This document shows, one piece after another, positions 8,320 to 53,918 of a DNA stretch of 64,000 bases (position 1 is its first letter; each line of letters starts with the position of its first letter). Origin of the DNA: Schmidtea polychroa (taxonomy: Eukaryota). The translations under genes were made by a program, and so were the position numbers. The notes beneath the pieces were generated by a model, which was not told the origin of the DNA, did not search any database, and saw nothing but the letters and a program-made list of their open reading frames with translations. The stretch covers positions 36,456,001-36,520,000 of the forward strand of contig CM097886.1 in NCBI GenBank assembly GCA_044892525.1. The letters are read 5' to 3'.

Positions 8320-8764
8320 ATAGAACTACCAAAAAAATAACTTATTTTAACTAGTGTGGTATAAGTAGCCAAAGTAAAAAAAACTTTATTCCTGGTCAAG
8401 TTGCTGATGAGTTAGATTAAGAATCTTCTGAATATATAGGATTGTATATTTATTCCAAGTAGAGAAAATTTTGTTGTAGCTGATTCATTAGTTAATTGTG
8501 GGTTAGAGTTAATAGTGGTAAAACTAAACTAGGTCATATTGAAAATGACTACGACATTGATATGGAATGTGGCGGAGAAATCCTACATAAAATGTCAAAT
8601 ATTTAGTACAGGTAAGTTGGGAATACTCAAGACTCATCATGTTTAAATTAAGACATATTTTAAAATGAGTTGAATTAGAAAAGTATTTGAATAATTACAG
8701 CTTTAGAGATCATCATGGAATTTTCGAGAATAGTAAATGAAAAATTGAGATAAAAATATGCGTA

Positions 8765-8958
8765 CTTTCCGGCTATCTCGACATTATCAAAAAATGAACA
8801 GTTTCAATTATAAAAATCTTTTTAAACCGACCAAGTAATTATATAGTCATAGACATTTACATATAGTCTGCGTTTATCTGACAAAGTATTTTGACCCCTT
8901 AAGGGTTTCAGGTCAATGGGGACTGATCGTTTTTGATGAGGTCGAGATAACCGGAAAG
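8765..8958. mobile_element. Tc1/mariner-type MITE
   Basis: Imperfect ~40-bp TIRs starting CTTTCCGGYTATCTCGAC, with TA on both flanks. Confidence 0.65.
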
Positions 8959-12734: not shown

Positions 12735-13699
12735 TTTTTCACAAATTGGAAATATGGATGAAACTCCAATGACCTTTGATCTGCCTGGAAATCAAACATT
12801 TGATTCAGTTGGAGCAAAAACAATCATGATCAAAACAACAGGCCATGAAAGAACACATTTTACCGTTGTGTTGGCTTGCATGACAGATGGAGTAAAATTT
12901 AAGCCCGTTGTCATCTTTAAACGAAAAACTCTTCCTAAGGGTAACAAATTCCAACCCGTAGTTATTGTTCAAGCACATCCTAAAGGATGGATGGATGAGA
13001 AAGGAACATAATCTTGGAAAAGCAACGTCTGGAACAAAAGGCCGGGAGGGATGCTCAATAAAAGATCAATGTTGGCATGGGACATGTTCCGTGCTCATCT
13101 TACAGATGGTTGTAAGAAAACAGCAGCTAACCTTAAAACCGACCTTGCTGTTATTCCAGGAGCTCAACAAACCTTTTAAAGATCGAGTTCGCAAGATGTG
13201 GGCTGAATGGATGAGTTCCGGTTCAGCAACTCTCACTAAAAGTGGCTATTTACAGAAACCCGATATAACTCTTGTAGCTGGTTGGGTTGATGAAGCTTGG
13301 AAATCGATCCCAGAAGAAATAATCAAATATTCATTTCTTAAATGTGGCATCAGCAATGCTATGGATGGAACTGAAGATGATGTTTTGTTCGTAGACGATT
13401 CTGATGATCAAGCAGATGTTGAAGTTTACTCTGAAGATAATGATCACACAGATGACCATGTTGGAGATGTTTCAGAGGAGGTCTACAATGAAGTTTTTGA
13501 CGACTAATCAAACAATCACAATTTATTCATCCTATTAAAAATATTTTGTGTCATTATTTTTCAATAAATTTTTTCAATTTTTTTGTTTAATTTTTTACTT
13601 CGACTTATACCTGGGTTTCCAAATTAGGACTTAAAAACCTCTTAAAATTTTCACTTCGACTTATACTAGGGGTCAACTTATACGCGACTATTTACGGTA
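12735..13699 (+). mobile_element. pogo/Tigger-like transposon 3' fragment (DDE_1 transposase pseudogene plus right TIR)
   Basis: QIGNMDETP, KTTGHERTHFTVVLAC, HPKGWMD and SFLKCGISNAMDGTEDD. Frameshifted; acidic tail; repeated CGACTTATAC; ends TTTACGG-TA. Confidence 0.85.
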
Positions 13700-16361: not shown

Positions 16362-16521
16362 NNNNNNNNNNNNNNNNNNNNNNNNNNNNNNNNNNNNNNN
16401 NNNNNNNNNNNNNNNNNNNNNNNNNNNNNNNNNNNNNNNNNNNNNNNNNNNNNNNNNNNNNNNNNNNNNNNNNNNNNNNNNNNNNNNNNNNNNNNNNNNN
16501 NNNNNNNNNNNNNNNNNNNNN
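16362..16521. other. Assembly gap (N run)
   Basis: Run of N. Confidence 1.
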
Positions 16522-16655
16522 TTTCACCTCTGATTTCTTTTCATTTTCAATTGACATTATATTTATTAAAAAATTGACTACGAATCAGTAGAGATATCAA
16601 TATTTATTTGATATATCTACTGATTCATAGTAAATTTTTTAATAAATATAATGTC

Positions 16656-16724
<69 letters not shown>
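16656..16724 (+). repeat. (AAT)n microsatellite with two ACT interruptions
   Basis: Read directly from the sequence. Confidence 0.97.
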
Positions 16725-16816
16725 AGTATAAAATGATGATTGCTTGGTAGCAGCATTTATTATTTAAAACAATAAAATGATAATTTAAGCCTTTTGCTGC
16801 AAATAATGTATTTAAT

Positions 16817-16855
16817 GAAAGAATTTTCGACTATACGATAGTCCTTGTCAATCTC
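16817..16855 (-). ncRNA. Minimal type-I hammerhead ribozyme-like motif in the Penelope 3' region (left-arm copy)
   Basis: Reverse complement of 30627-30665. Confidence 0.55.
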
Positions 16856-17249
16856 CTGGAATTTAGCAATGTTCTTCCCCAAAATACCTTTCAATCTTTC
16901 TTTTATTTCCTTTCTCTTAATTCTCATTGGTTGTAAATATAATGAATTGTTTTACTAAAAACTTTTAAAATTTTTACATTTAAAATTTCAAAATGACACA
17001 AACTAAAAATTTTTAAATTTTTTACAGCTTCTATAATTAGCTTCTAGAAGCCTAATAAAATATTTGAAAATATTTTAAATAAAGCCTCCAATAACTACTT
17101 ATATATGCTATTTAAATATTTCCATAAATGTGTCAATTTTGATTTTCAAACCCTATTTTTTAAAATTTTTTTTTATATTATTCTAATTATTACTTTTTAA
17201 TTTATTCTATTTTTTTAATTTCTTTATATATTGTCAGTTATTCTCAAAG

Positions 17250-18311
17250 TCAATGACAACAGATCAAATTCATGATTTCATTGATTTCTTCTTTAGTGTT
17301 GATCTTTGGCTGTCTGTTTATGATGAGAATTGCTTCTTTGATTCTGACATTTTTCTTTTGGATGTTTCCATTAGCTATGATTTCTATTGAAATATTTTTT
17401 CTTTCTTCTGTTGGCTGACACTGCCGGAGATGTCTACCCAACGGGGATGTTCCACCAGGATCTAGATGTTCTTTAACTCTTTGGTGCAATGTCCTGAGGG
17501 TACTTCCAATGTAGATTTCATTGCATACATTGCACGTGATGCAATAGACGATGTTTTTTCTAAAGCACATATCTTTCGGTGTCTGGCAGTTTTTCATTGT
17601 GCAATTGTTTTCTCTATTTATGTTGCCTGCCAGAGCCCTTCTCAATGTCCAAGATTTATGTGCTATCCGAATTGGAAGACCGGTACGTTTAAGTTCTTTC
17701 AGGATCTTGAAGTCGAGTATGTCACTGATGAATGGGATATTCAGATAGAAATATTTCTGATTCTTTTGTGTTAATTCCCTAGATCTTCTTGGGGTAGAAT
17801 TCATTCTTTCAATGTCCTCACCTTGGTATCCGTTTCGGTGTAGGATTTTATTGAAATTTGATTGCTCTTTAAAGTTTTCGTTTTTCTCCGTGCATCGATT
17901 GGCTATTCTTCGTTTCTCGTTTCTTATGACATGTACTTTCTGTAAGTATGGAAGCGCTGATCTTTGGTGCATAAATATTTCTTTGCGAGCTGGTTTTCTG
18001 TAGAACCCGTATGTTGGAGTATTTTCTTCTATTTTGATTCTCAAATCCAATAAATTGAGGGATCCATCTTCTTCCGGATATTCGATTTCGAACTTAATAT
18101 CTTGATGAGCCGCATTGAATTTATGAAATATTTCCTCCGCTTCTTTTTTGTTTTTGGTCGTGATGAAGATATCATCTACATATCTTGCATAGAAACCGAT
18201 GGGTTGTATGGTCCTCAGTGTCTGTCGTTCGAGGTTATCCATAAAGATGATTGCTAGCAGTCCTGATATGCTAGAACCCATAGGCAGACCTTTAACTTGT
18301 TTATAGAACAT
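17250..18311 (-). mobile_element. Penelope-like element, C-terminal RT plus GIY-YIG endonuclease (left arm)
   Basis: FYKQxKGLPMGS, ARYVDDIF, LNLLDL and FYRKP mark RT. NIVYCITCNVCNEIYIGST.RTLHQRVKEH and KEAILI...PKIN mark GIY-YIG. The ATG is created at the junction with the filler. Confidence 0.93.
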
Positions 18312-19356
18312 ATCTCGACATCTGTCAGAGATAAGGCTGAAATAACGTGGAATACAGAGAAGAAAGTAAACAAAATTATCTCAAGTATTGCAAATGGGGC
18401 AAGCTATAAAAAAGAAGACACAGAAGTTAAGTTAGCTTTAAGAGAGTTAGAGTTAAATTTAGAGAATTGAAAGAGAATAAAGAAAGAATTAACAAGAGGT
18501 AAAAGAAGAATTAAACAGAGTTTAAATAAAGTGAGCCCAAAGTAACAGAATTGAACTAGTTGATAAATAATTGATTGGGAGAGTGACGAGAATCATCTAT
18601 AAAATTGAATTAAAAGTGGAGTGAACAAAGTTGTGGTCAAAGCAAATAGAACAATCGATCAACGTACCATGTAATTGAGTTGGTTGACGGTTAGTGATTA
18701 TTGTTGTTTTTACAGAAACTATACGTAGTTTCGCAATAAGTTCTGTGTAATTAATTGGTTGTAATTGTAACTTGTACGATCTATTGTGAAGATTAATAAA
18801 GCTTATCTTGTTTGGAAGTTAATTTGTAAATTTATAAAACACACTTTGGAGTCAGCTAAGACTTTAACAATAGAACTACCAAAAAAATAACTTATTTTAA
18901 CTAGTGTGGTATAAGTAGCCAAAGTAAAAAAAAACTTTATTCCTGGTCAAGTTGCTGATGAGTTAGATTAAGAATCTTCTGAATATATAGGATTGTATAT
19001 TTATTCCAAGTAGAGAAAATTTTGTTGTAGCTGATTCATTAGTTAATTGTGGGTTAGAGTTAATAGTGGTAAAACTAAACTAGGTCATATTGAAAATGAC
19101 TACGACATTGATATGGAATGTGGCGGAGAAATCCTACATAAAATGTCAAATATTTAGTACAGGTAAGTTGGGAATACTCAAGACTCATCATGTTTAAATT
19201 AAGACATATTTTAAAATGAGTTGAATTAGAAAAGTATTTGAATAATTACAGCTTTAAAGATCATCATGGAATTTTCGAGAATAGTAAATGAAAAATTGAG
19301 ATAAAAATATGCGTACTTTCCGGCTATCTCGACATTATCAAAAAATGAACAGTTTC
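18309..19356 (+). repeat. ~1.05-kb filler matching 7769-8805 (partial LTR, flank and MITE TIR), left arm
   Basis: Colinear with 7769-8805 from CATATCTCGAC to GAACAGTTTC, with about ten substitutions and a short indel. Confidence 0.93.
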
Positions 19357-20148
19357 GGGAACAAAAGAATCAAGAAAACATTTTGAAAACGTATTTGAAT
19401 AACCACCCAAAAGAATTGATCTACGAGGTACAAAGACAATCCTTCATGACAGCAGAAGCACATTATTCCTTGCGATTTGACAAAAGAATCAAACACCTTT
19501 TGAGAAAAAAGGAGCTCAAAGCAGGCCTAGTTATGAACAATGAAACACTGGACGGAAACGAAAGCATTACAGTGAACAAAGAACTAGTAACCGACCTCAC
19601 AAATTGTCTATCCAAAGGTGAAAAAGGATTACTTTCACTAGGACCAAAGTTCAGTATAAACAGAGAAATAGATGACGCAGCCATCCTCAATTTCAAAACA
19701 GCTCTTTGTCGCATTGCGTACCAGATCAAATGGAACAATACAATACCGCATGAAAATGAAAATAGCGAAAACCAGCTCCCAGTATACATAAACACAGATA
19801 AACTCTATCAACCAAATCCTGATGCAGAATTAGATTCAACACTCTCAAAGGTCTGTCACAAAATCATGGAGATAGTTGAGAAGGAAAGAAGAAAACCATA
19901 TCTCTCAAACCTAACGAAAGACGAACAGGCAATATTAAAATCCCTTAAAAAGAAACCGTACGTTTACTTACCAAGTGACAAGGGGGGAGAATTTTGCATT
20001 ATAGAGAAGAATCGTTACTGTGAAGCTGGTTACGAACACCTCGGCAACATCGAAACATACAAGAAAGTCAGCCGCATGTCACCAAACACCATCGAAATGA
20101 AGATCAACAAAGTATGGAAAGCCATAGCTTTGGAAATAAGGCTCAACA
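19357..20148 (+). mobile_element. Penelope-like element N-terminal fragment, inverted relative to the RT/GIY-YIG part (left arm)
   Basis: LLSLGPKF, SNLTKDEQAILKSLK, LPSDKGG and HLGNIETY are typical of the region preceding PLE RT. The stop codon comes from the adjacent TIR. Confidence 0.85.
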
Positions 20149-20394
20149 AGTAGTGAGGAATCTATGCACCCCAGCACCCCCACCCTAAAAAAAAACAGCG
20201 CTATTGACCCATATTTTCCACATTTATATGCTTTTTTACCCCATATTCTTCACTTTTTTTAACTTTTAAACTTTGTCCCCTATTGCCATTAACCCTTAAT
20301 TTCTTCCCTTAAAAGTAAAAAAGTTCGGAATAGATGTATTTATAGATTACTAATTCCGAGAAAAGGTAACGGGGTGCATAGATTCCTCACTACT
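20149..20394. mobile_element. 246-bp element with 24-26-bp TIRs (AGTAGTGAGGAATCTATGCACCCC), left-arm copy
   Basis: Perfect inverted repeats at 20147-20172 and 20371-20396; no direct-repeat TSD visible. Confidence 0.8.
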
Positions 20395-20538
20395 TGGTCT
20401 TAAGGATTTAATGTTATAAGGATTTAATGTTATAAGAATATCAGATTACCTAATTCATAATGATCTAGGTCGCCTGATCACCTTAAGGTTTTGAAAGTTT
20501 TAAAAATAAAAAATTTTATGAAAATAGTAAAACTGCTC

Positions 20539-20910
20539 TGAGGGGACAGTGGTTTTTTTTTTTTTTTTTTTTTTTTCACTGTCCCCTCAACAGTTTTTTT
20601 TTGATCCGGATCATTTTTTTTTTTTATTTATCAACCTCTTTCGTTTATCAAATCTCTTCCAATATACAAGCTGGCCAGACTCATACATCAGAATCAATCC
20701 GATAATAGCAGCACGCCTTATTATTCGCTTCTCGCTCACGAAGTCGATTTCAACGGCGTTTTAAGTGTGCTGCTCGAAAGTACAAATGAATTCGAAAGCG
20801 AATCCGAAAGAGGTCCGAAAACAACTGAGAAATAAATGTGCACATTACCGGGATCGATCCGGGGGTGTTCGAAAGACAGGTGGCGATAATTACCGGTTCG
20901 CCACCATCAC
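20539..20910. promoter_or_regulatory. CpG-rich non-coding block with hairpins (left-arm copy); function unknown
   Basis: 13-bp stem TGAGGGGACAGTG/CACTGTCCCCTCA around a T24-containing loop, a GATCCGGATC palindrome, several CGAAA motifs, and a GGTGGCGA/TCGCCACC stem. Confidence 0.4.
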
Positions 20911-21077
20911 CCGTTTCAATATTTTTTTTTTCATATTTATGTTTAAAAAATAATTAATTAATAAAAAAATAAAATAAAATAAAATAAATAAAATAAAATA
21001 TACAAGTACTTTATAAATATAAGATACCCACACTATTTTCAATATTATTTTCAAATTTTTAATATTATTTTATGTTG

Positions 21078-21885
21078 AAAAAAAACTAACCTCAGATGTG
21101 ATTTGAACCACTATCCATTTGAACCACTGTGCCAGTCTATTCCCACTGCGCCATCAAGGTTTGAATTTTTGTCATTTTTTAGACTATAAATAATCGATAC
21201 AAGTTCTTTAACTCTTTCCTGTAATTGTTTCATTTTCTTCAATCTTATATCAGCAACATCTACAGCCTTCATATAAAAATGTCGATACTTTTCATTATCT
21301 ACCATCAACTCTTTGATGTATTCTAATGGTTCTTCTTCTCTTCTTTTCATTCTCTTATGTCTAACTTCATTCAATTCATTTCTCATTCTTTCTTTTAACT
21401 CATCCATTTTTATAAATATTTTTTTATTGGATATATTAATTTTTGGTAGTTAAAACGTTTTTGATCTTAAATTTCCAAGAGTTGCCGTTGACCAATCTCC
21501 TTAAAAATTTGTACAAGTACTAAATCGAGTATGCTGATCAATATTTCGTTAAAAAAAATTTGAAAAAAAATGACAGAAATGGGATTTGAACCCATTGGTA
21601 TTGGCAATGCAGTCGAGTGCTATTACCACTAAGCTATTAGAGCTATACTCAATATAAAATAAGTTGTTAATGTGTGACTATTTATTGATGAAATTAATAA
21701 TTAATTATTCATTTTCTCGACAACTACCACTCAGATCCATCTGAAAATTTAAATATATACTAAAATCAGTACGCTGAATCAGATTCCGTTGAAAAAATAT
21801 CGATAAAAATTGACCAAAATCGAAAATTGAACCCGGTACTCCCGGTGATAAAATTGAAGCCTATTCCCACTCCGCTATAATGGCT
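21078..21885 (-). ncRNA. Three tRNA-like Pol III (A-box/B-box) units, left-arm copy
   Basis: Mirror image of 25596-26405. Confidence 0.6.
21111..21407 (-). CDS. 98-aa orphan, predicted helical/coiled-coil protein (left-arm copy)
   Basis: Open in both arms, with TATAAAAATG start context like the capsid gene. No family recognised. Confidence 0.45.
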   Translation of the reverse strand: MDELKERMRNELNEVRHKRMKRREEEPLEYIKELMVDNEKYRHFYMKAVDVADIRLKKMKQLQERVKELVSIIYSLKNDKNSNLDGAVGIDWHSGSNG

Positions 21886-21940
21886 TACATAATATATTTA
21901 ATTAATCCTATTTTGTGTGTGTAAATTTTAATATATAAAA

Positions 21941-22157
21941 ATGAATAACATAAATCTTAAAATTCAAGAAAAAAATAAAAGTATCAGACCAAGATGATCG
22001 ATTAGCCATAAATAATGTTGATGTTACACTTCATGTAACAAAGGATTCTAATTTTAAAGCTAAAGTATATACATTAATATTAGAAGAAAAGAAAATAGAA
22101 ATGAAATTATATGGTGGAAAGATTTCAATAATCGAAAATGTTAGGGGAGATTCTTGA
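21941..22157 (+). pseudogene. Internally deleted copy of the major capsid gene
   Basis: MNNINLKIQEKNK is joined to the region encoding VSDQDDRL by a 1076-bp deletion relative to 24248-25540, causing a frameshift and an early TGA. Confidence 0.93.
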
Positions 22158-22175
22158 TATTTTCAACCTTGTGAT

Positions 22176-23732
22176 ATGGTTGATTGGTATAAGGAAAAGA
22201 TTTTAGAATCAGATATTAGTAATAAAAATGATTATATTTGTGAAGAAGGGCAGGAGGCAATTCAAGTTTTATTCTCTAATAAACCTGAAGATGTTTTACA
22301 TTGTGATTTACTTCCTAAAGATAAAAAGAATAATAAATATTGGAGATGTGAAAGTTGTAATTGTCAAGTTACAAGACATAATAAAGCAAGTCATTTAAAA
22401 ACTAAAAAACATACAGGAGGTGATCTAATTCCACGAGCTGGAGGCGATTTGCAATCTTCAAAAACAACATCTTCAATATTAAAACCTTGTACTACAGAAA
22501 AATATCCAGGTGAAAGACATTTATTTAAACACAACTATACTGGACCAGGAACACGTCTAGATATTAGATTAGATGAAAATAATAATCCCAAACAAGGAGA
22601 AGAACCAATAAATAGAATTGATCAAGCAGCTTTAAAACATGACATTGCATACAATTCAACAAATCTTAGAGATAGACATGTTGCAGATGTGAATTTAATA
22701 CATGATTTAAATAGTATCCAAAATCCATCAACCCAAGAAAAGATTCAAAGAGCTCTAGTTAAATTAGCAATGAAAGGTAAGATTTTCATAGGCTTAGGAC
22801 ACAGTCCGATCACCATGGGTGCAAGACTTCCTAGAATAGCAAAAGATGTTGCTTATAAAAAGATTATCGAACAAGCAGACATTGAAAGATCCCTCGAGAG
22901 TACAGCCAAGACTAGTTTACAAACCCCAACAGAATCAGAAATAAAATACGCAAAGGAATTACACCATGAATTTAGAAAAAATAAAAAATATTTAAAAGTT
23001 CAAGTACATGAAAAAGATCAAACATGGTCTGCAGATTTAGTCTTTATGCCCAAATCATCAGACCCTGAAAAATATAAAATAATTTTAACTGTAATAGATT
23101 TATATACAAGATTTGCTTTTGCAAGATGTTTAGAAAATAAAACAGGATATTCTATTACAGAAGCATTTGAAAATATATTTGAAGAAAATCAAAGAATCCC
23201 AAAATATTTATGGTGTGATAAAGGAACAGAATTTTATAACAAAGTTTTTACAAAGTTTTTAAATGAAAATGATATTAAATTATATTCAACAGAAAACGAA
23301 GGAAAAGCAGTCGTAGTTGAAAGATTAAATAGAACATTAAAAAATAAAATGTGGAAATATTTTACTGCTATTGGAAAACAAAAATGGAACAATGAATTGT
23401 TACAAAAGATTGTAAATGAATATAATAATGATGTACATAGTTCTATAAAATTAACACCTTTAAATGCTTCCATGAAGCCTGAAACCATTAAAGTGGTAAA
23501 TATTGAAAATGATGTTATTGAAAAACCAAAGTTTAAAATTGGTGACCGAGTAAGAATATTTAAATATAAAAATAAATTTGAAAAAGGATTCACAGCAAAA
23601 TGGACAAATGAAATTTTTATTATAAATAAAATACATTATACAACTCCAATAACATATAGCATCTTTGATTTAAATAATGAAAAAATATTAGGTAGATTTT
23701 ATAATAATGAACTACAGAAAACAGATTTTTAA
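22176..23732 (+). CDS. Polinton/Maverick-type integrase with an N-terminal zinc finger and parvovirus-like PLA2 domain; the first 52 codons are copied from the ATPase ORF
   Basis: Zinc finger CESC...HLKTKKH. PLA2 motifs YTGPGT and DQAALKHDIAY...AD. Integrase core WSADL / VIDLYTRF / WCDKGTEF / VERLNRTLK. C-terminal FKIGDRVRI...KWTNEIF...GRFYNNELQK. Confidence 0.9.
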   Translation: MVDWYKEKILESDISNKNDYICEEGQEAIQVLFSNKPEDVLHCDLLPKDKKNNKYWRCESCNCQVTRHNKASHLKTKKHTGGDLIPRAGGDLQSSKTTSSILKPCTTEKYPGERHLFKHNYTGPGTRLDIRLDENNNPKQGEEPINRIDQAALKHDIAYNSTNLRDRHVADVNLIHDLNSIQNPSTQEKIQRALVKLAMKGKIFIGLGHSPITMGARLPRIAKDVAYKKIIEQADIERSLESTAKTSLQTPTESEIKYAKELHHEFRKNKKYLKVQVHEKDQTWSADLVFMPKSSDPEKYKIILTVIDLYTRFAFARCLENKTGYSITEAFENIFEENQRIPKYLWCDKGTEFYNKVFTKFLNENDIKLYSTENEGKAVVVERLNRTLKNKMWKYFTAIGKQKWNNELLQKIVNEYNNDVHSSIKLTPLNASMKPETIKVVNIENDVIEKPKFKIGDRVRIFKYKNKFEKGFTAKWTNEIFIINKIHYTTPITYSIFDLNNEKILGRFYNNELQKTDF

Positions 23733-23743
23733 GTCGACAAGCC

Positions 23744-24229
23744 CTAAAACAAACTTTTCCATATTTCAGCTTCTTCTCTATCCAAATAAATATAATTATA
23801 TTTTTCTTTCCAATGATTATCAACAAACATATCAAACATATTCTTATCAGGTTCAACATTTGAAAATAAATCATTATAAATCATATTCTTATCACGGCGA
23901 TCTAATTTAAAAAATATAAAACAATTGGAATTATTTCTTATTGAATTTTTATCTAAAGCATAATATGTTTGAGATATATAAATAACATTACAATTATTAT
24001 GTCGACCTCGTGTAAAGTAACTCTTTTGAATCTCTTGATTTTTCATATTAACAACATCATCAAATATAACTAGATTCTTTTTATCTTTAGGAAGTAAATC
24101 ACAATGTAAAACATCTTCAGGTTTATTAGAGAATAAAACGTGAATTGCCTCCTGCCCTTCTTCACAAATATAATCATTTTTATTACTAATATCTGATTCT
24201 AAAATCTTTTCCTTATACCAATCAACCAT
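23744..24229 (-). CDS. A32/FtsK-like viral packaging ATPase, lacking the N-terminal Walker A region
   Basis: Walker B LVIFDD, then FTRGRHNNCNVIYISQTY and IRNN. No GxxGxGK motif. Confidence 0.85.
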   Translation of the reverse strand: MVDWYKEKILESDISNKNDYICEEGQEAIHVLFSNKPEDVLHCDLLPKDKKNLVIFDDVVNMKNQEIQKSYFTRGRHNNCNVIYISQTYYALDKNSIRNNSNCFIFFKLDRRDKNMIYNDLFSNVEPDKNMFDMFVDNHWKEKYNYIYLDREEAEIWKSLF

Positions 24230-24247
24230 ATCACAAGGTTGAAAATA

Positions 24248-25540
24248 TCAAGAATCTCCCCTAACATTTTCGATTATTGAAATCTTTCCACCATATAATT
24301 TCATTTCTATTTTCTTTTCTTCTAATATTAATGTATATACTTTAGCTTTAAAATTAGAATCCTTTGTTACATGAAGTGTAACATCAACATTATTTATGGC
24401 TAATCGATCATCTTGGTCTGATACATTTATACAAAATATAGAATATAAATTTTTGAAATCTTCTAAACTTAATTGCGGTTCAACTTTGAAATCATAACAT
24501 GTTTCAATATAATTTAGATATGGGAATATGTTTTCATTATTTTCAATATTAAATTCCATTCTATTTATTGGATAATAAGAACTATTTAATTGAATTTGTA
24601 TTGTTTTTAAATTATCAACTCCAATCTTTTGAATAAACAAGTTGTTATTTTTTTGGAAAGATGAATCTGTTTCTTTGAATCCAATCAAGATATATCTTGG
24701 TCGGTATGCTAAATTTGCTACCTTTATAGAATATGTTGAACCCTCTGTCATACTAAATTCACTACAGATTCTATTTAAATAATTTACATTTATAGACTTG
24801 TTGGAATTTAATCTTTCAAGGAGTTTAATCTCAGAATGTGGGTTTAATGTCCATTCAGGTATATGTAATTCAAGTGTTGATAATTTTAATTTAGCTTTTG
24901 TATCTACAGCTCCATAGAACAATCTTTTATCACCTTCTACTCTATTACAGATGAATTCTATAAAAACATTATGAAGTATACGATTATAGTTTTGAAGGAA
25001 TCCAAACAAGTGTTTTAATTCAAAATAACCTTCAAATTTTTTAGATTTATAAAGTTCAGCTCTTTTATGGTAACCATGGTTTACATCTAAACCATCTTTA
25101 TCTAAATCCCCTTTATTAACATCAGGAATCCAACCTGTTAATTCACCATATTCGTTTTTATAATCACAACCAGTCAAAATAAAATTTAACATTGTAGAAT
25201 ATACTCCCGGATGCAAAACAGTTTCAATTTCTGATGATCCTAGTTTTAATCTCATGTTGGAGAATAAATTTGGAAAGAAATTATTTTCTAGGGTTATATC
25301 TTTGTTTGCTTCAATTTCTAATTCGATTTTATAATATAATTTGGCATTACAAATATCTATAGGGTTTGATGTTTGAAGAGATTGAAAAACTATATCACCC
25401 CTACGATTTAAGTTTGCAATAGATCCTGAAGTTGGAGAGATTTTTAAAATATCATTTTTTTTAATTTCATGAGTAAATTCTTTATTATAATCAAGATTTA
25501 ATTTATTTTTTTCTTGAATTTTAAGATTTATGTTATTCAT
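24248..25540 (-). CDS. Polinton/adintovirus-type major capsid protein (double jelly-roll, hexon-like)
   Basis: Uninterrupted 430-aa ORF with LFSNMRLKLGSSEIE, RPRYILIGF, IQIQLNSSYYP and FKNLYSIFCINVS. It sits next to a packaging ATPase and an integrase. Confidence 0.8.
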   Translation of the reverse strand: MNNINLKIQEKNKLNLDYNKEFTHEIKKNDILKISPTSGSIANLNRRGDIVFQSLQTSNPIDICNAKLYYKIELEIEANKDITLENNFFPNLFSNMRLKLGSSEIETVLHPGVYSTMLNFILTGCDYKNEYGELTGWIPDVNKGDLDKDGLDVNHGYHKRAELYKSKKFEGYFELKHLFGFLQNYNRILHNVFIEFICNRVEGDKRLFYGAVDTKAKLKLSTLELHIPEWTLNPHSEIKLLERLNSNKSINVNYLNRICSEFSMTEGSTYSIKVANLAYRPRYILIGFKETDSSFQKNNNLFIQKIGVDNLKTIQIQLNSSYYPINRMEFNIENNENIFPYLNYIETCYDFKVEPQLSLEDFKNLYSIFCINVSDQDDRLAINNVDVTLHVTKDSNFKAKVYTLILEEKKIEMKLYGGKISIIENVRGDS

Positions 25541-25595
25541 TTTTATATATTAAAATTTACACACACAAAATAGGATTAATTAAATATATTATGTA

Positions 25596-25691
25596 AGCCA
25601 TTATAGCGGAGTGGGAATAGGCTTCAATTTTATCACCGGGAGTACCGGGTTCAATTTTCGATTTTGGTCAATTTTTATCGATATTTTTTTT
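25596..25691 (+). ncRNA. tRNA-like Pol III unit 1
   Basis: A-box TAGCGGAGTGG (25604-25614), B-box GGTTCAATT (25648-25656), then T-runs. Confidence 0.5.
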
Positions 25692-25839
25692 CAACGGAAT
25701 CTGATTCAGCGTACTGATTTTAGTATATATTTAAATTTTCAGATGGATCTGAGTGGTAGTTGTCGAGAAAATGAATAATTAATTATTAATTTCATCAATA
25801 AATAGTCACACATTAACAACTTATTTTATATTGAGTATA

Positions 25840-25920
25840 GCTCTAATAGCTTAGTGGTAATAGCACTCGACTGCATTGCCAATACCAATGGGTTCAAATC
25901 CCATTTCGGTCATTTTTTTT
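25840..25920 (+). ncRNA. tRNA-like Pol III unit 2 (tRNA-Cys-like, not a full cloverleaf)
   Basis: A-box TAGCTTAGTGG, CTGCA in the anticodon-loop position, a perfect T-arm ATGGG-TTCAAAT-CCCAT, and T8 at 25913-25920. Anticodon and acceptor stems pair poorly. Confidence 0.65.
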
Positions 25921-26075
25921 CAAATTTTTTTTAACGAAATATTGATCAGCATACTCGATTTAGTACTTGTACAAATTTTTAAGGAGATTGGTCAACGGCA
26001 ACTCTTGGAAATTTAAGATCAAAAACGTTTTAACTACCAAAAATTAATATATCCAATAAAAAAATATTTATAAAA

Positions 26076-26372
26076 ATGGATGAGTTAAAAGAAAGAATGA
26101 GAAATGAATTGAATGAAGTTAAACATAAGAGAATGAAAAGAAGAGAAGAAGAACCATTAGAATACATCAAAGAGTTGATGGTAGATAATGAAAAGTATCG
26201 ACATTTTTATATGAAGGCTGTAGATGTTGCTGATATAAGATTGAAGAAAATGAAACAATTACAGGAAAGAGTTAAAGAACTTGTATCGATTATTTATAGT
26301 CTAAAAAATGACAAAAATTCAAACCTTGATGGCGCAGTGGGAATAGACTGGCACAGTGGTTCAAATGGATAG
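26076..26372 (+). CDS. 98-aa orphan, predicted helical/coiled-coil protein (right-arm copy)
   Basis: As for the left copy. The C-terminus overlaps Pol III unit 3. Confidence 0.45.
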   Translation: MDELKERMRNELNEVKHKRMKRREEEPLEYIKELMVDNEKYRHFYMKAVDVADIRLKKMKQLQERVKELVSIIYSLKNDKNSNLDGAVGIDWHSGSNG

Positions 26373-26405
26373 TGGTTCAAATCACATCTGAGGTTAGTTT
26401 TTTTT
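26323..26405 (+). ncRNA. tRNA-like Pol III unit 3
   Basis: A-box TGGCGCAGTGG (26330-26340), duplicated AGTGGTTCAAAT B-box, ACCTTG/TGAGGT acceptor-like stem, and T8 at 26398-26405. Confidence 0.55.
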
Positions 26406-26572
26406 CAACATAAAATAATATTAAAAATTTGAAAATAATATTGAAAATAGTGTGGGTATCTTATATTTATAAAGTACTTGTATATTTTATTTTATTTATT
26501 TTATTTTATTTTATTTTTTTATTAATTAATTATTTTTTAAACATAAATATGAAAAAAAAATATTGAAACGGG

Positions 26573-26944
26573 TGATGGTGGCGAACCGGTAATTATCGCC
26601 ACCTGTCTTTCGAACACCCCCGGATCGATCCCGGTAATGTGCACATTTATTTCTCAGTTGTTTTCGGACCTCTTTCGGATTCGCTTTCGAATTCATTTGT
26701 ACTTTCGAGCAGCACACTTAAAACGCCGTTGAAATCGACTTCGTGAGCGAGAAGCGAATAATAAGGCGTGCTGCTATTATCGGATTGATTCTGATGTATG
26801 AGTCTGGCCAGCTTGTATATTGGAAGAGATTTGATAAACGAAAGAGGTTGATAAATAAAAAAAAAAAAATGATCCGGATCAAAAAAAAACTGTTGAGGGG
26901 ACAGTGAAAAAAAAAAAAAAAAAAAAAAAACCACTGTCCCCTCA
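26573..26944. promoter_or_regulatory. CpG-rich hairpin block (right-arm copy)
   Basis: Mirror image of 20539-20910. Confidence 0.4.
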
Positions 26945-27088
26945 GAGCAGTTTTACTATTTTCATAAAATTTTTTATTTTTAAAACTTTCAAAACCTTAA
27001 GGTGATCAGGCGACCTAGATCATTATGAATTAGGTAATCTGATATTCTTATAACATTAAATCCTTATAACATTAAATCCTTAAGACCA

Positions 27089-27334
27089 AGTAGTGAGGAA
27101 TCTATGCACCCCGTTACCTTTTCTCGGAATTAGTAATCTATAAATACATCTATTCCGAACTTTTTTACTTTTAAGGGAAGAAATTAAGGGTTAATGGCAA
27201 TAGGGGACAAAGTTTAAAAGTTAAAAAAAGTGAAGAATATGGGGTAAAAAAGCATATAAATGTGGAAAATATGGGTCAATAGCGCTGTTTTTTTTTAGGG
27301 TGGGGGTGCTGGGGTGCATAGATTCCTCACTACT
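27089..27334. mobile_element. 246-bp AGTAGT-ended TIR element (right-arm copy)
   Basis: Mirror image of 20149-20394. Confidence 0.8.
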
Positions 27335-28126
27335 TGTTGAGCCTCATTTCCAAAGCTATGGCTTTCCATACTTTGTTGATCTTCATTTCGATGGTGTTTG
27401 GTGACATGCGGCTGACTTTCTTGTATGTTTCGATGTTGCCGAGGTGTTCGTAACCAGCTTCACAGTAACGATTCTTCTCTATAATGCAAAATTCTCCCCC
27501 CTTGTCACTTGGTAAGTAAACGTACGGTTTCTTTTTAAGGGATTTTAATATTGCCTGTTCGTCTTTCGTTAGGTTTGAGAGATATGGTTTTCTTCTTTCC
27601 TTCTCAACTATCTCCATGATTTTGTGACAGACCTTTGAGAGTGTTGAATCTAATTCTGCATCAGGATTTGGTTGATAGAGTTTATCTGTGTTTATGTATA
27701 CTGGGAGCTGGTTTTCGCTATTTTCATTTTCATGCGGTATTGTATTGTTCCATTTGATCTGGTACGCAATGCGACAAAGAGCTGTTTTGAAATTGAGGAT
27801 GGCTGCGTCATCTATTTCTCTGTTTATACTGAACTTTGGTCCTAGTGAAAGTAATCCTTTTTCACCTTTGGATAGACAATTTGTGAGGTCGGTTACTAGT
27901 TCTTTGTTCACTGTAATGCTTTCGTTTCCGTCCAGTGTTTCATTGTTCATAACTAGGCCTGCTTTGAGCTCCTTTTTTCTCAAAAGGTGTTTGATTCTTT
28001 TGTCAAATCGCAAGGAATAATGTGCTTCTGCTGTCATGAAGGATTGTCTTTGTACCTCGTAGATCAATTCTTTTGGGTGGTTATTCAAATACGTTTTCAA
28101 AATGTTTTCTTGATTCTTTTGTTCCC
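27335..28126 (-). mobile_element. Penelope-like element N-terminal fragment (right arm)
   Basis: ORF 27330-28100, the mirror of 19383-20153. Confidence 0.85.
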
Positions 28127-29172
28127 GAAACTGTTCATTTTTTGATAATGTCGAGATAGCCGGAAAGTACGCATATTTTTATCTCAATTTTTCATTTACT
28201 ATTCTCGAAAATTCCATGATGATCTTTAAAGCTGTAATTATTCAAATACTTTTCTAATTCAACTCATTTTAAAATATGTCTTAATTTAAACATGATGAGT
28301 CTTGAGTATTCCCAACTTACCTGTACTAAATATTTGACATTTATGTAGGATTTCTCCGCCACATTCCATATCAATGTCGTAGTCATTTTCAATATGACCT
28401 AGTTTAGTTTTACCACTATTAACTCTAACCCACAATTAACTAATGAATCAGCTACAACAAAATTTTCTCTACTTGGAATAAATATACAATCCTATATATT
28501 CAGAAGATTCTTAATCTAACTCATCAGCAACTTGACCAGGAATAAAGTTTTTTTTACTTTGGCTACTTATACCACACTAGTTAAAATAAGTTATTTTTTT
28601 GGTAGTTCTATTGTTAAAGTCTTAGCTGACTCCAAAGTGTGTTTTATAAATTTACAAATTAACTTCCAAACAAGATAAGCTTTATTAATCTTCACAATAG
28701 ATCGTACAAGTTACAATTACAACCAATTAATTACACAGAACTTATTGCGAAACTACGTATAGTTTCTGTAAAAACAACAATAATCACTAACCGTCAACCA
28801 ACTCAATTACATGGTACGTTGATCGATTGTTCTATTTGCTTTGACCACAACTTTGTTCACTCCACTTTTAATTCAATTTTATAGATGATTCTCGTCACTC
28901 TCCCAATCAATTATTTATCAACTAGTTCAATTCTGTTACTTTGGGCTCACTTTATTTAAACTCTGTTTAATTCTTCTTTTACCTCTTGTTAATTCTTTCT
29001 TTATTCTCTTTCAATTCTCTAAATTTAACTCTAACTCTCTTAAAGCTAACTTAACTTCTGTGTCTTCTTTTTTATAGCTTGCCCCGTTTGCAATACTTGA
29101 GATAATTTTGTTTACTTTCTTCTCTGTATTCCACGTTATTTCAGCCTTACCTCTGACAGATGTCGAGATATG
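28127..29172 (-). repeat. Filler matching 7769-8805 (right arm)
   Basis: Mirror image of 18309-19356. Confidence 0.93.
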
Positions 29173-30231
29173 TTCTATAAACAATTTAAAGGTCTGCCTA
29201 TGGGTTCTAGCATATCAGGACTGCTAGCAATCATCTTTATGGATAACCTCGAACGACAGACACTGAGGACCATACAACCCATCGGTTTCTATGCAAGATA
29301 TGTAGATGATATCTTCATCACGACCAAAAACAAAAAAGAAGCGGAGGAAATATTTCATAAATTCAATGCGGCTCATCAAGATATTAAGTTCGAAATCGAA
29401 TATCCGGAAGAAGATGGATCCCTCAATTTATTGGATTTGAGAATCAAAATAGAAGAAAATACTCCAACATACGGGTTCTACAGAAAACCAGCTCGCAAAG
29501 AAATATTTATGCACCAAAGATCAGCGCTTCCATACTTACAGAAAGTACATGTCATAAGAAACGAGAAACGAAGAATAGCCAATCGATGCACGGAGAAAAA
29601 CGAAAACTTTAAAGAGCAATCAAATTTCAATAAAATCCTACACCGAAACGGATACCAAGGTGAGGACATTGAAAGAATGAATTCTACCCCAAGAAGATCT
29701 AGGGAATTAACACAAAAGAATCAGAAATATTTCTATCTGAATATCCCATTCATCAGTGACATACTCGACTTCAAGATCCTGAAAGAACTTAAACGTACCG
29801 GTCTTCCAATTCGGATAGCACATAAATCTTGGACATTGAGAAGGGCTCTGGCAGGCAACATAAATAGAGAAAACAATTGCACAATGAAAAACTGCCAGAC
29901 ACCGAAAGATATGTGCTTTAGAAAAAACATCGTCTATTGCATCACGTGCAATGTATGCAATGAAATCTACATTGGAAGTACCCTCAGGACATTGCACCAA
30001 AGAGTTAAAGAACATCTAGATCCTGGTGGAACATCCCCGTTGGGTAGACATCTCCGGCAGTGTCAGCCAACAGAAGAAAGAAAAAATATTTCAATAGAAA
30101 TCATAGCTAATGGAAACATCCAAAAGAAAAATGTCAGAATCAAAGAAGCAATTCTCATCATAAACAGACAGCCAAAGATCAACACTAAAGAAGAAATCAA
30201 TGAAATCATGAATTTGATCTGTTGTCATTGA
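29170..30231 (+). mobile_element. Penelope-like element, C-terminal RT plus GIY-YIG (right arm)
   Basis: Same motifs as 17250-18311, with one amino-acid difference (QF versus QV). Confidence 0.93.
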
Positions 30232-30626
30232 CTTTGAGAATAACTGACAATATATAAAGAAATTAAAAAAAATAGAATAAATTAAAAAGTAATAATTAGA
30301 ATAATATAAAAAAAAATTTTAAAAAATAGGGTTTGAAAATCAAAATTGACACATTTATGGAAATATTTAAATAGCATATATAAGTAGTTATTGGAGGCTT
30401 TATTTAAAATATTTTCAAATATTTTATTAGGCTTCTAGAAGCTAATTATAGAAGCTGTAAAAAATTTAAAAATTTTTAGTTTGTGTCATTTTGAAATTTT
30501 AAATGTAAAAATTTTAAAAGTTTTTAGTAAAACAATTCATTATATTTACAACCAATGAGAATTAAGAGAAAGGAAATAAAAGAAAGATTGAAAGGTATTT
30601 TGGGGAAGAACATTGCTAAATTCCAG

Positions 30627-30665
30627 GAGATTGACAAGGACTATCGTATAGTCGAAAATTCTTTC
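30627..30665 (+). ncRNA. Minimal type-I hammerhead ribozyme-like motif
   Basis: GAGA-TTGACAAG-GACTA(TCGTA)TAGTC-GAAAATTC-TTTC: a variant core, stem II, a palindromic AATT stem III, and a short stem I. Located in the PLE 3' region. Confidence 0.6.
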
Positions 30666-30717
30666 ATTAAATACATTATTTGCAGCAAAAGGCTTAAATT
30701 ATCATTTTATTGTTTTA

Positions 30718-30803
<86 letters not shown>
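30718..30803 (+). repeat. (AAT)n microsatellite at the PLE 3' end
   Basis: Pure AAT tract, read directly. Confidence 0.97.
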
Positions 30804-32442: not shown

Positions 32443-33950
32443 TCCCCTCTTTTTTAAAAAGCTTTAGCCACTCTGTTTCTTATAAGCCTTTTTCCATTCT
32501 CAAATTTTACTTCATAACTTTTCTCATGTATTTGTTTTATCACTTCAGCAAGTCTAATATATCGATCCTAGTCTTTGTTGTTATCATTTCTTTTTACCAG
32601 CACTATGTCTCCTACTTTGAATTTTCTTTCTGTTATTTCGTTAAAACCCATATTCTCAACCGACATATTTGTAGACCATTCTTTATATATTCTTTTTTCA
32701 AAAACTCTTTCACTTGGAGTTTGTCTAATTGTTTTCTGAAATATAGAATTTAACATAAACTCGACTTCTGGTAATAACTCTACCCAATTCTTGTGATCTT
32801 TATCTTTTAGAGTGATATGAATGGCGTCTCTAATTGTTCTGAATTGTCTTTCGATTAGGCCATTTGCTGAATTGATTTTAACGTTATACTCCTTCATTAA
32901 ATTATTCATGGCTTTGCTCTCTCAATGTAGAAATCTCGGCGCACCAATTTTTAAAATCCAATTATTTCTTAAGATTGCTGTAACGGTTTTTTCGTCTTGT
33001 GATTGCACTGCGTGTAGTGCCACATATTTACTAAAACTATCGATAATTCCTACGATATATCTCATTCCATACTGATTTTGCTTTAGTGGACCATAACAAT
33101 CTATAAATATTGTTTCAAATAAACCTGGTTCTGGCATTTTGTAAATTTTATCCCTAGTTCGTGTTGTTGTAGTTTTCCTCTTTTGACAATTTTCACAACT
33201 TTGAACTACGTCTCGGATCGTTCGTTTCATGTGTATTATTGGAAAATTATTTGACACATATTTCTCAATTTTCATTGGTCCAGCATGGCACAGTTTCTTA
33301 TGATACTTTTTAATGAATTCAATTCTTTTATCATCCGGAATCCATATTTCATTGTTTTCTGTCAATATTACTCCATTCTTTATTATGAATTTGTTACCCT
33401 CATTTTGTTTTATGTTGTTTATGATTTCTGTAATTTCTTTTGAATTCCTTTGCCATTCTTGTTCTGGGTTTTCCGTCATTATTGCCAAAAGTTTCGTTTT
33501 GAGTTTTCTTGTCTTTGGATTAATATGGATGGATAGATTCATTTCTTGACAATGCATCTGCATTGAAATGTTCTTCTCCTTTCCTAAATTGAAATTCTAT
33601 TTCCAAACTACTTAAATAATTTATCCATGTCTGGAATTGTGGAGTGATAGGTTTCTTTGTCTTCATCATATATGTTATGGCTTTATGATCCGTGCGTAGT
33701 ATAAATCTTTTCCCATAAAAATAATGTTTAAAATGATTTGTGAAATAATATATTGCTAAGTTCTTTTCTTGTTATGCAATAACCCACCTCGTGTTTCGGC
33801 ATAGCATGCGATCCATAAGCATAGCATTTTCCTTTCCAGAACTATCTGTCTGTGACAAAACAGAGCCTATACTATCGAAGCTAATATGAAAGATTTTGTA
33901 AAATCAGGAAATTTTAATATTGGTCCATTAATCAACTTATCTTTCCGTTT
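32443..33950 (-). mobile_element. Degenerate Ty3/Gypsy pol (RNase H and integrase) with a probable polypurine tract
   Basis: RNase H: PDFTKSF, ITRKEL, FILRTDHKA and NADALSR. Integrase: HKKLCHAG...CENCQ, IDCYGPL, IIDSFSKY and NGLIERQFRTI. AAAAAAGAGGGGA on the minus strand near 32443-32456. Confidence 0.85.
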
Positions 33951-36180
33951 CAATAAGTAATTTAAGGTCCAAATTTCAAATTTAAAGTAAATTAAGGATC
34001 TGAAAAATGAATTAAAGTAACTTATCACTTAGTTAATTAGGATAAATAGGTAAATTAATGGCTAATTTTTAAAATTAAGTAATCAATGGTCTAAAATTTT
34101 AAAGTTAAAGTAATATTTTTAAATTAAGTAAATTAAAGTAAAAATTTAAAAATAAAAGTAAATTTATATAATAAGTAAATTAAAGTAAGATTTTTAAATT
34201 TATTAATAAAAAGTTTGAAGAACCAACAGCTTCTGAGAAATAAAATGTTTATGTAAATTTTTATGAAATATTTTTCAAAGATAATTTTCAATGGAAATTT
34301 TTATGAAATATTTTTCAATGTTAATTTTAGATGCAAATCTTTGTTAATTAATCATTCACTACATGAAATTATTGGTTAAATATGTAAATAAGGGTTATAT
34401 TCGGTTGTTAAGTAAATTATGGTGTAAAATGTTAAATTAAGTAATACAAGGATAAACAGGTAAATTAAAGTAATTTAAGGTTCTAAAATTTTTAATTAAA
34501 GTAAATTAAGGTTTTAATAATTGAATTACAGTAAATTATGAGCTAAATCTTTAAATTAAAGTTAAATAAGTAAATTAAAGTAATAATTTTTAAATAAGTA
34601 AATTAATGTAATAACTTTTAAATAAGTAAATTAAAGTAATAATTTTTAAATTTATTATCAAAAGATTGAAAATGTGAGCTGTACCCTTGTGAGCAATAAA
34701 CATAGTGGTCAAAACATCTTGTCGGATAAACTCAGACTATATATAATAAAATGAATTAACAATAACTATTTATTGAATGCAATTTTTACTTTGCAATAAT
34801 ATGTCAGTAGTAATCAATTAAAAGAAGAATGTTTTGTGAATTAGATTTAGAATTCTATAGTTCTATATTGTAATTCAAATTATTTTCAATTCCACGTGGT
34901 GTTTTAAAGGGGTTGACAATTATTCATTACTGATTGTAATTAAAAATATTTTTGAAGACTAATAAAAACAAATTAATTTATTTAAAAAGCATTTGATAAA
35001 ATACAATGAAGAATATTTACTTGATTGTAAGTAGTTAGTTGTAAGTATCTAATTGTTTGAGAGTTAGTTAGTACTTGGTATCTGGTACCTAGTTGGTTGC
35101 TTGTTAGTACATGTTATCATGTTGTAAGTATTTGGTACTTATTTGTTAGCACCTAGTTAAAAATATTTAGTAGCTGATAGTTGGTAACATATAGTACATA
35201 GTATATAGTTGTACCTATAGTACCCCGTTGTTAGGTATCTAGTGGTTAGCTGTTTGTTAGAAGTAGATCGTTGTAATTATCTGGTTGACTTTTTAGATTT
35301 TGACAAGAATATAAGAAATATTTTACTTGCTGAATTAAGAAAAGATTATTATAAGCAAATACTTGATGAATAAATTTTATTAAGTCTTTAATTGTTATTA
35401 TTTTATGTGTATGTATGTGGTTGTTAGTACTTGTTTGTTTTTACTTGGTTGTTCTTAGTGTATGGAACTTGGTAACTGGTTGTAAGTACTTGTTATCTAG
35501 TTGTAAACACCTGGTAGTTGTTGGNNNNNNNNNNNNNNNNNNNNNNNNNNNNNNNNNNNNNNNNNNNNNNNNNNNNNNNNNNNNNNNNNNNNNNNNNNNN
35601 NNNNNNNNNNNNNNNNNNNNNNNNNNNNNNNNNNNNNNNNNNNNNNNNNNNNNNNNNNNNNNNNNNNNNNCAAGCAATCATCATTTTATATTATTATTAT
35701 TATCATTGAAATTTACATCTAAATTTATCTTTAAAAATTATTCCATTAAAATTTCCATTAAAAATTAACTTAAAAAAATTTACATTTAAAATTAACTTAA
35801 AAAAATTTACATTTAATATTAACTTAAAAAATTTACTTTAATTTACTTAACTTTAAAATTTTAGACCATTTATTACTTAATTTTAAAAATTAGCCATTAA
35901 TTTACCTATTTATCCTAATTAACTAAGTGATAAGTTACTTTAATTCATTTTTCAGATCCTTAATTTACTTTAAATTTGAAATTTGGGCCTTAAATTACTT
36001 ATTTGAACCCATTGGTTACTTTCATTTACTTCCATTCTAAAATTATTACTTTAATTTACTTATTTTACTTTAATTTAAAATTTTAGACCTTAATTTACTT
36101 TAATTGAAAACTTTGAACCTTAATTAACTATAATTTTAAATTTTAGACCATAATTTACTTTAATTTAAAAATTTACCATG
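33950..36180. mobile_element. Foldback-like element with inverted, internally repetitive arms
   Basis: ~33950-34110 is a near-identical inverted copy of ~35845-36005. Arms are built from AAGTAAATTAAAGTAA-like modules (33955-34640 and 35760-36180). Confidence 0.6.
35525..35670. other. Assembly gap (N run)
   Basis: Run of N. Confidence 1.
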
Positions 36181-36405
36181 CTATTTTAGTGTATACCCCC
36201 CTTTTGAATTGAAATTCTCAGGACCAAGGAGACCCACCTCAATAATACTTAAAATTATTCATGCTTTTTTTAGTGATAGTCGGATTTTGTATTGAAAATC
36301 CCAAGACCAAGGAGCCCCACCTTAATTGTACTTGAAAATATCCATGCATTTTTAGTGTAGACTGATATTTGTATTGAAAATCCCAGGACCAAGGAGACCC
36401 CCTCA
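36172..36405 (+). repeat. ~82-83-bp tandem repeat, about three diverged copies
   Basis: Core CARGACCAAGGAG.CCC at 36219, 36302 and 36384. Confidence 0.8.
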
Positions 36406-53710: not shown

Positions 53711-53918
53711 NNNNNNNNNNNNNNNNNNNNNNNNNNNNNNNNNNNNNNNNNNNNNNNNNNNNNNNNNNNNNNNNNNNNNNNNNNNNNNNNNNNNNNNNNN
53801 NNNNNNNNNNNNNNNNNNNNNNNNNNNNNNNNNNNNNNNNNNNNNNNNNNNNNNNNNNNNNNNNNNNNNNNNNNNNNNNNNNNNNNNNNNNNNNNNNNNN
53901 NNNNNNNNNNNNNNNNNN
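53711..53918. other. Assembly gap (N run)
   Basis: Run of N. Confidence 1.

Follow-up and report, generated by a model that had tools for sequence, protein, structure and literature searches.

Can a virus-like element of the Polinton/adintovirus type persist in a genome with little more than a capsid gene and an integrase gene? The question is raised by two long open reading frames (ORFs) in Schmidtea polychroa (assembly GCA_044892525.1, contig CM097886.1, positions 36,456,001 to 36,520,000; this whole stretch of 64,000 nt is called the window, and all positions refer to it). An earlier note on this DNA had described 22176-25540 as a reduced Polinton core and had offered two origins, a very recent insertion-and-deletion product or a non-autonomous satellite of a helper Polinton. 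Its observation that the 518-aa integrase frame (22176-23732, plus strand) and the 430-aa capsid frame (24248-25540, minus strand) are free of stops is correct: they are the longest two of the 15 stop-to-stop frames of at least 150 aa in the window, and 430 open codons would occur by chance with a probability of about 5e-17 at 28% GC. What it overlooked is a 14-kb palindrome that encloses the module. We conclude that the copy is young and rearranged, embedded in this palindrome and probably unique. A one-off template-switch rearrangement of a single recent Polinton insertion is the explanation that we favour, with a probability of roughly 0.55.

Positions 16757-30725 form a near-perfect palindrome of 13,969 bp with the capsid/integrase module at its centre, and the ORF list of the region is mirror-symmetric. 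The left arm (16757-21979) matches the reverse complement of the right arm (25502-30725) at 99.75% over 5227 columns, with 6 substitutions and 6 short homopolymer gaps. An inner left arm (21975-22331), composed of a capsid tail, a junction termed J3 and 172 bp of an ATPase gene, matches the reverse complement of 24074-24430 at 99.4% over 357 bp. Away from the junctions the arms differ by 7 substitutions in total, besides the 6 homopolymer gaps. The spacer of 1742 bp (22332-24073) occurs once in the window; it comprises a zinc-finger/phospholipase A2 (PLA2)/integrase gene together with the 3' portion of the ATPase gene. From the outside inwards, each arm carries a Penelope-like 3' piece with reverse transcriptase (RT) and GIY-YIG domains facing outward, a 1-kb repeat X, a Penelope-like N-terminal piece, a Polinton-type end, a 98-aa ORF, tRNA-like stretches and the capsid gene.

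The Polinton-derived unit within the palindrome spans 20149-27334 (7186 bp) and is bounded by (AGT)2 ends, at 20149 and in mirror image at 27334. (AGT)2 or (AG)3 is the typical end motif of Polinton terminal inverted repeats (TIRs) (PMC8097293); the right end copies the left, so the motif is present on both sides by construction. A Polinton insertion is defined with a direct 6-bp target duplication (PMC8097293). None was found around the unit: the flanking 6 bp are reverse complements rather than direct repeats, and the mirror symmetry continues 3.4 kb beyond the (AGT)2 ends into a Penelope retroelement. The 7.2-kb unit was therefore not integrated in its present form. The Penelope-like ORF is cut at 20149, which shows that a Polinton did insert into Penelope.

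Three inner junctions mark the rearrangement. At J1 (21979/21980), head and tail of the left capsid copy are joined into a remnant with a broken frame (21941-22157, plus strand), which lacks 1076 bp between two 5-bp microhomologies; only J1 shows clear microhomology. At J2 (22331/22332), 52 ATPase-derived codons are fused in frame with the integrase gene. At J3 (about 24245-24251, at the capsid stop codon), the capsid end is joined to the middle of the ATPase gene. J3 occurs in both arms and is thus older than the last copying step. The 518-aa frame is consequently a chimera whose residues 1-52 (22176-22331, plus strand) are a second copy of the ATPase piece, differing in one residue from the start of the 161-aa ATPase ORF and matching residues 103-150 of P0162 (P numbers denote related proteins, L numbers 32 related loci, among them metagenome contigs). 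This leader is carried by none of the best 120 of 765 integrase relatives and by none of the 5 members of the integrase cluster.

From the map and the structure, which are observed, we infer the order of steps and the mechanism as follows. In the first step, a head-to-head Penelope element, whose 3' part was repeated in inverted orientation on the left, would have occupied an (AAT)n tract; such an inverted structure is usual for these elements (PMC3846280). A Polinton with the order end, capsid (plus strand), zinc finger/PLA2/integrase (plus strand), converging on ATPase (minus strand) and whatever followed, then inserted into Penelope at 20149, as the cut ORF shows. Once the ATPase gene had been broken, the right side would have been reconstructed with the left as template; copying, which passed through the inverted 3' ends of Penelope, would have reached back as far as the capsid stop, where the new sequence was joined to what remained of the ATPase gene (J3). 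Everything to the right of the ATPase middle, presumably including polymerase, protease and penton, would thereby have been lost and a large inverted repeat left behind. Finally, the left arm may have been repaired from the right, skipping 1076 bp of capsid at the 5-bp microhomology that marks J1, continuing for 172 bp within the ATPase gene and rejoining at the integrase start (J2). Template switching by microhomology-mediated break-induced replication or fork stalling and template switching (MMBIR/FoSTeS; PMC2621351) combines an inverted duplication with a deletion and with short homology at the junctions, features that the present copy shares, the mechanism being read from the map. One-sided invasion in gap repair is a related template-switch route. 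Polinton-type ancestry, recent origin and gene loss, all proposed before, are supported by these data. A recent insertion followed by rearrangement likewise fits, whereas a plain deletion does not, as a fold-back duplication replaced the right half.

The state of the two arms agrees with this reconstruction. The arms share letters that are rare in X1, one of the public runs considered below: at 20350 the other letter accounts for 642,304 of 646,524 depth and at 17444 for all of 606,148. The arms therefore descend from one copy. Three substitutions are private to the right arm (18331 and 18395, judged against the third copy of repeat X, and 22265/24140, judged against 10 of 10 ATPases), one is private to the left (21361) and three are unpolarised; private changes on both sides fit two arms that have aged apart. 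On this reading, the frames have stayed open through the extreme youth of the copy rather than through selection for a reduced gene set. Openness does not distinguish the module from nearly every other element either, as had been claimed, since the Penelope pieces beside it are also open (376 and 282 codons, each twice).

The parent family can be traced in public data. At least 20 of 24 listed runs, from 8 studies, contain part of 21990-25500. Contigs of four runs, X1 (110,765 aligned), X5 (20,758), X2 (labelled 'organism B', from the same study as X1) and X15 (a putative RNA run; no matching run is listed as RNA), were compared over 16730-24070, a range that leaves the capsid interior and the right arm outside. 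Summed contig depth, which is not copy number and comes from contigs that drop rare variants, is 0.84-2.07 million per bin over 20160-24070 in X1 versus 788 at 18935-19179, and 46,000-434,000 over 20405-24070 in X5 versus 57 at 18935-19179. Even if overlapping contigs inflate it up to 31-fold, the depth still points to near-identical copies that number in the hundreds or higher. The parent family thus looks young and rich in copies. Its common gene order in contigs is capsid, then zinc-finger/PLA2/integrase, converging on a longer ATPase, and L001 also has the capsid followed by the integrase gene. Two X5 contigs join 22153 (capsid end) to 22338 (integrase start) without the ATPase piece, and loose X5 ends with other upstream letters lie before 22160 (ATPase, 5) and before 22334 (integrase gene, 4). 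In X2, record 24 follows the ATPase across 172 letters of the inner arm and then diverges, as against 357 expected from the present copy, and record 21 begins at 22332; a loose end in X15 before 21975 leads into the capsid interior. Neither J2 nor J3 occurs in the common form as represented by X2 and X5. We did not accept X2 as a second host, given its low even depth, its shared study with X1 and possible carry-over.

How far could the map be an artefact, or have come about in another way? If the true locus were a Penelope with an ordinary Polinton, a fold-back among near-identical repeats, made by the assembler or by whole-genome amplification, could have created a chimera. The window contains N gaps (16362-16521, 35525-35670 and 53711-53918), homopolymer gaps account for 6 of the 13 arm differences, X1 and X5 hold very many near-identical contigs, palindromic fragments do arise in amplification (PMC6218980), and the junctions are absent from the pieces among the matches listed. 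However, such an error would have to produce three inner junctions (one of them in two places) and still lead back cleanly into a flank that differs, and it sits badly with 7 arm substitutions and private changes on both arms. In addition, the arm version of repeat X (X1 record 2, 18408-18553, without differences where the third copy differs) has a depth of 348 versus 159-167 for single variants, about what two copies would give, which is weak support for two real arms. We regard an artefact as unlikely, although it is the alternative to be taken most seriously. The next in rank, also unlikely, is a fold-back retrocopy made by Penelope, in which an 8.4-kb read-through RNA of right arm and spacer, from the integrase start to the Penelope 3' end, was reverse-transcribed into the AAT tract and its cDNA folded back at J2 to give the left arm. 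It would explain why both outer ends coincide with the Penelope 3' end, why J2 is located at the integrase gene start and why (AAT)n stands on the same strand at both flanks, with one of only three such tracts 31 bp from the left end; moreover, Penelope elements are capable of self-priming, adopt inverted structures and can mobilise cargo in trans (PMC3846280), a 4-kb module being one example (PMC6431247). The donor would already have needed J3, the inner inversion, and none was seen; the outer ends are without target duplication; copying errors would be expected on the left arm, yet 3 of the 4 polarised substitutions are on the right; and the standard head-to-head Penelope form accounts for the outer ends without a new insertion. 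An extended version is a long shot: the cargo of a Penelope RT would have been the core of a DNA virus (capsid and PLA2-integrase), which was written into a microsatellite as a fold-back palindrome of 14 kb. Polinton genes could in this way move without a polymerase of their own, long double-stranded RNA directed at the family would result, and the parent would be an undescribed Polinton lineage of very high copy number with a PLA2 membrane-entry domain on its integrase, possibly virion-borne.

Least probable, and very much so, is the satellite of the earlier note, a mobile non-autonomous unit of 7.2 kb that would carry capsid and integrase between (AGT)2 ends and spread by a helper's polymerase. 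The terminal motif at both sides, the intact capsid and the intact catalytic residues of the integrase would suit it, and mobile polintons without DNA polymerase B (polB) as well as 2-kb gene-containing inverted ends are reported from butterflies (bioRxiv 10.1101/2025.02.07.637071). The flanks are nevertheless mirrored for 3.4 kb without a 6-bp target duplication, the ATPase is truncated and has no P-loop while those of its cluster have 257-264 aa in 10 of 10 cases, none of the 5 integrase cluster members carries the ATPase-derived leader, and the contigs of the common form in X2 and X5 have another gene order and miss J2 and J3. As polB-less mobile polintons and gene-bearing inverted ends have already been reported, the satellite would not be new in kind either. 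Some points weigh against the in-place rearrangement that we favour. The order of its steps is a reconstruction, and the retrocopy model yields the same map. Seven substitutions are too few for firm dating or polarising. The full gene set of the parent was not seen, its polymerase being deduced from relatives at 24-50% capsid identity, and the evidence from X5 and X2 consists of few contigs, those of X2 being possible carry-over. Lastly, none of 32 pieces among the matches listed (of 102,780) crosses J1, J2 or J3, which neither verifies nor refutes the junctions. A single copy with unique junctions had been named in the earlier note as the mark of a one-off relic, and the evidence leans in that direction.

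The natural part of the integrase gene (22332-23732, plus strand; residues 53-518) matches P0323 at 93% and P0042 at 89%, in both cases from their residue 2. It combines a C2H2 zinc finger with a PLA2-like domain of the parvovirus type (PF08398, 5.1e-09) and an rve integrase domain (PF00665, 3.6e-12), and both the integrase triad (D287, D348, E382) and the PLA2 motifs YTGPG and HDxxY are present (518-aa numbering). PF08398 and PF00665 occur together in 110 of the best 120 of 765 relatives, in a search whose query itself favours such matches, and the fusion with the zinc finger is encoded in L001, L002 and L018; a pX-like protein is a separate ORF in L002. We therefore rejected the PLA2-integrase fusion as a product of the rearrangement, as the relatives carry it normally; judging by them, the zinc finger-PLA2-integrase protein is the natural form of the lineage. 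A membrane-active domain on an integrase suggests that the integrase may be packaged and help entry.

The major capsid gene (24248-25540, minus strand) is full length and of the double-jelly-roll type (PF21738, 2.9e-26), with 96-98% identity to the 7 full-length members of its 9-member cluster; a sequence search of the PDB with the capsid alignment returned 0 matches. The A32-like packaging ATPase (23744-24229, minus strand) is truncated at its 5' end by J3. Its 161 aa, which match Pox_A32 at 1.6e-4, below the family cut-off, align to residues 103-259 of P0162, so that the first ~100 residues are missing. All 10 ATPases of the closest cluster carry a P-loop at residues 30-37; no P-loop is present in any frame of 20149-27334. 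The layout given in the earlier note, an integrase on the plus strand converging on ATPase and capsid on the minus strand, is thus right, but its ATPase is not intact. Convergence of integrase and ATPase was rejected as a further rearrangement junction, since X2 record 24 and X15 record 16 bridge it. A separate observation concerns the closest cluster (P0162 and P0324-P0332), in which the final Thr/Ser of Walker A is replaced by Asn in 10 of 10 full-length ATPases; distant ones keep GKT/GKS.

The lack of a protein-primed polymerase, a protease and a minor capsid gene, reported before for the module, is borne out for the whole window. By tblastn at E 0.1 it was compared with 20 proteins encoded in related loci, including polymerase-type, protease-like and penton-like ones; only the 4 ATPases among them were expected to match, and 3 of these did, as did one weak zinc-finger stretch (E 0.019). 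No match was obtained with the polymerase-type proteins of L003 and L019, nor was a polymerase found by Pfam in the 14 frames scanned. The candidate protease and penton ORFs of L002, L003, L012 and L019 gave no match either, although their labels are weak, Peptidase_C5 being recognised at E 0.046 in 1 of 3 scanned and penton being assigned by size and position only. The unit behaves as a defective Polinton in which integrase, capsid and end motif are retained and polymerase, whole ATPase, protease, penton and target duplication are missing. By its gene content, the copy would be unable to replicate or package itself and could at most be moved in trans via its two mirrored ends. Adintovirus integrases typically carry a chromodomain (PMC11071296), C-terminal in the Starrett/Buck definition. 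That definition also asks for a hexon in reciprocal recognition with the Mayetiola or Terrapene reference and for a PolB bearing an OTU-like domain; the window has no PolB. PF00385 finds none in the 518-aa frame and is present in 16 of the best 120 relatives, with 0 in the top 94; a strict adintovirus assignment is therefore not made. The wider lineage includes putatively complete Polinton-like elements: polymerase-type ORFs are found in the related loci L003 and L030, a pX-like one in L002 and a weak match to a protease in L003, and ATPases of full length are also present; these loci are relatives at 24-52% and not the parent. Three pattern scans of a viral contig collection gave 0 relatives among 1, 19 and 109 pattern matches. 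Two metagenome contigs of 14-20 kb, L030 and L031, represent further polinton-like elements; they hold a distant capsid (24-25%) and an ATPase, L030 also having the polymerase-type ORF.

With Polintons/Mavericks, including adintoviruses, the copy shares the double-jelly-roll capsid, the rve integrase, the A32-like ATPase and the (AGT)2 end motif; it differs by the missing polymerase, protease and penton, by the lack of a target duplication and by a right half that mirrors the left. PLA2 is a virion gene of its own in described Polintons (PMC8502044; PMC5803895; with one legend mention in PMC3671162), whereas here it is fused ahead of the integrase. A printed PLA2-integrase fusion was not met in the literature searched, and figures or supplements of PMC8502044 and PMC3671162 may show one. 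Butterfly polintons that are polB-less or have long TIRs resemble the present copy in the loss of polB, in inverted repeats that hold capsid sequence twice and in their mixing with retroelements, but they recur as TIR-bounded insertions (bioRxiv 10.1101/2025.02.07.637071), while here the inverted repeat reaches 3.4 kb into Penelope and no recurrence was seen. Penelope-like elements of Adineta vaga (PMC3846280) also combine RT and GIY-YIG, with outward 3' ends at both extremes and nested cargo. Their inverted parts are pseudo-long terminal repeats (pLTRs) of ~200 bp, often with 8-10-bp target duplications, in contrast to arms of 5.6 kb that include Polinton sequence.

A single rearranged copy matters little in itself, as defective copies predominate among Polintons and examples lacking polB have already been published. 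In vertebrates, 96% of Polinton copies are defective, and Mavericks have a median of 8 copies (PMC8097293), in contrast to the apparently young and abundant parent family. The locus does show clearly, however, how a false 'minimal virus' can arise from nested inverted repeats. A better lead is the parent family, which looks abundant and has a PLA2-integrase fusion that is widespread in unnamed proteins. Its host would be well suited to a search for Polinton particles or free linear DNA, which is a long-standing question.

The outer end of the Polinton-derived unit is a 246-bp terminal unit (20149-20394, mirror 27089-27334) that starts with (AGT)2 and finishes with (ACT)2, has inverted ends of 24-28 bp (z -8.4) and is connected to the inner sequence by X2 record 19. 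With the Polinton end motif at its inner as well as its outer terminus, it resembles a mini-element. Its summed depth is 1.2 million in X1, 199 in X5 (next bin 148,828) and 0 in X15 (next bin 617), so the ends of the family may differ between strains. In a shorter end variant, seen in two studies (2 X5 contigs, 1 X15 contig), 486 bp are skipped in 21437-21924. A charged 98-aa ORF (21111-21407, minus strand; mirror 26076-26372, plus strand) has no Pfam match and no match in the 32 related loci, and its Atlas recognition is low and indicates no family. A tRNA-like sequence (25840-25912, plus strand; mirror near 21570-21643) reaches 32.4 bits with Rfam RF00005 (cut-off 29), and ARAGORN reports 0 tRNAs. 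Among the tRNA-like stretches at 21095-21175, 21570-21645 and 21815-21890, with their mirrors, it is the one above the Rfam cut-off, the other two being recognised by eye; they could be RNA polymerase III promoters or remains of short interspersed nuclear elements. Hairpin-like short inverted repeats lie at 20538-20600, around a long T run in the element end, and at 16550-16658 (~110 bp), just outside the left arm.

Of the flanking Penelope sequence, the C-terminal piece (17250-18380, minus strand; mirror 29101-30231, plus strand) carries RT (RVT_1, 1.1e-10) followed by GIY-YIG (7.2e-06) in a single frame of 376 codons. It is broken at ~18307, past which 3 X15 contigs continue with other letters, and the middle of the ORF is missing. 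The N-terminal piece (19357-20148, plus strand; mirror on the minus strand, 27335-28126) belongs to an open frame at 19305-20153 that is cut by the Polinton end, and one X15 contig carries on beyond 20149 with other letters; it has no Pfam match, and we take it to be Penelope-like on account of GPKF and DKG motifs. In search of a pLTR, no direct repeat of the 3' part longer than 15 bp was found inside 18308-27334, and no hammerhead ribozyme reached the Rfam gathering score. Repeat X (18305-19356, plus strand; mirror 28127-29176) has a third copy of 98% at 7765-8805 and copies of 65-77% near 49.5 and 62.5 kb. It may be either a separate repeat or the Penelope 5' part; a solo LTR (long terminal repeat) was rejected, as no target duplication was found and the boundaries are blurred. 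Of the window's 3 long AAT tracts, one, (AAT)n at 16656-16725 (plus strand), ends 31 bp outside the left arm, and an (AAT)28 tract (30718-30803, plus strand) forms the tail of the right Penelope 3' end; at the mirror site, 16757, 40 X1 contigs run into the same repeat. Elsewhere in the window, a weak RolB/RolC match (43897-44370, E 0.009, below the cut-off) is probably due to chance. An AT-rich cluster of tandem and inverted repeats (33952-36409) surrounds the N gap at 35525-35670, and remains of other elements (RT, DDE_1, a Gypsy-type integrase zinc domain, a distant Penelope-like piece and hAT) lie at 1129-1599, 12962-13507, 32922-33596, 40550-41221 and 45545-47190.

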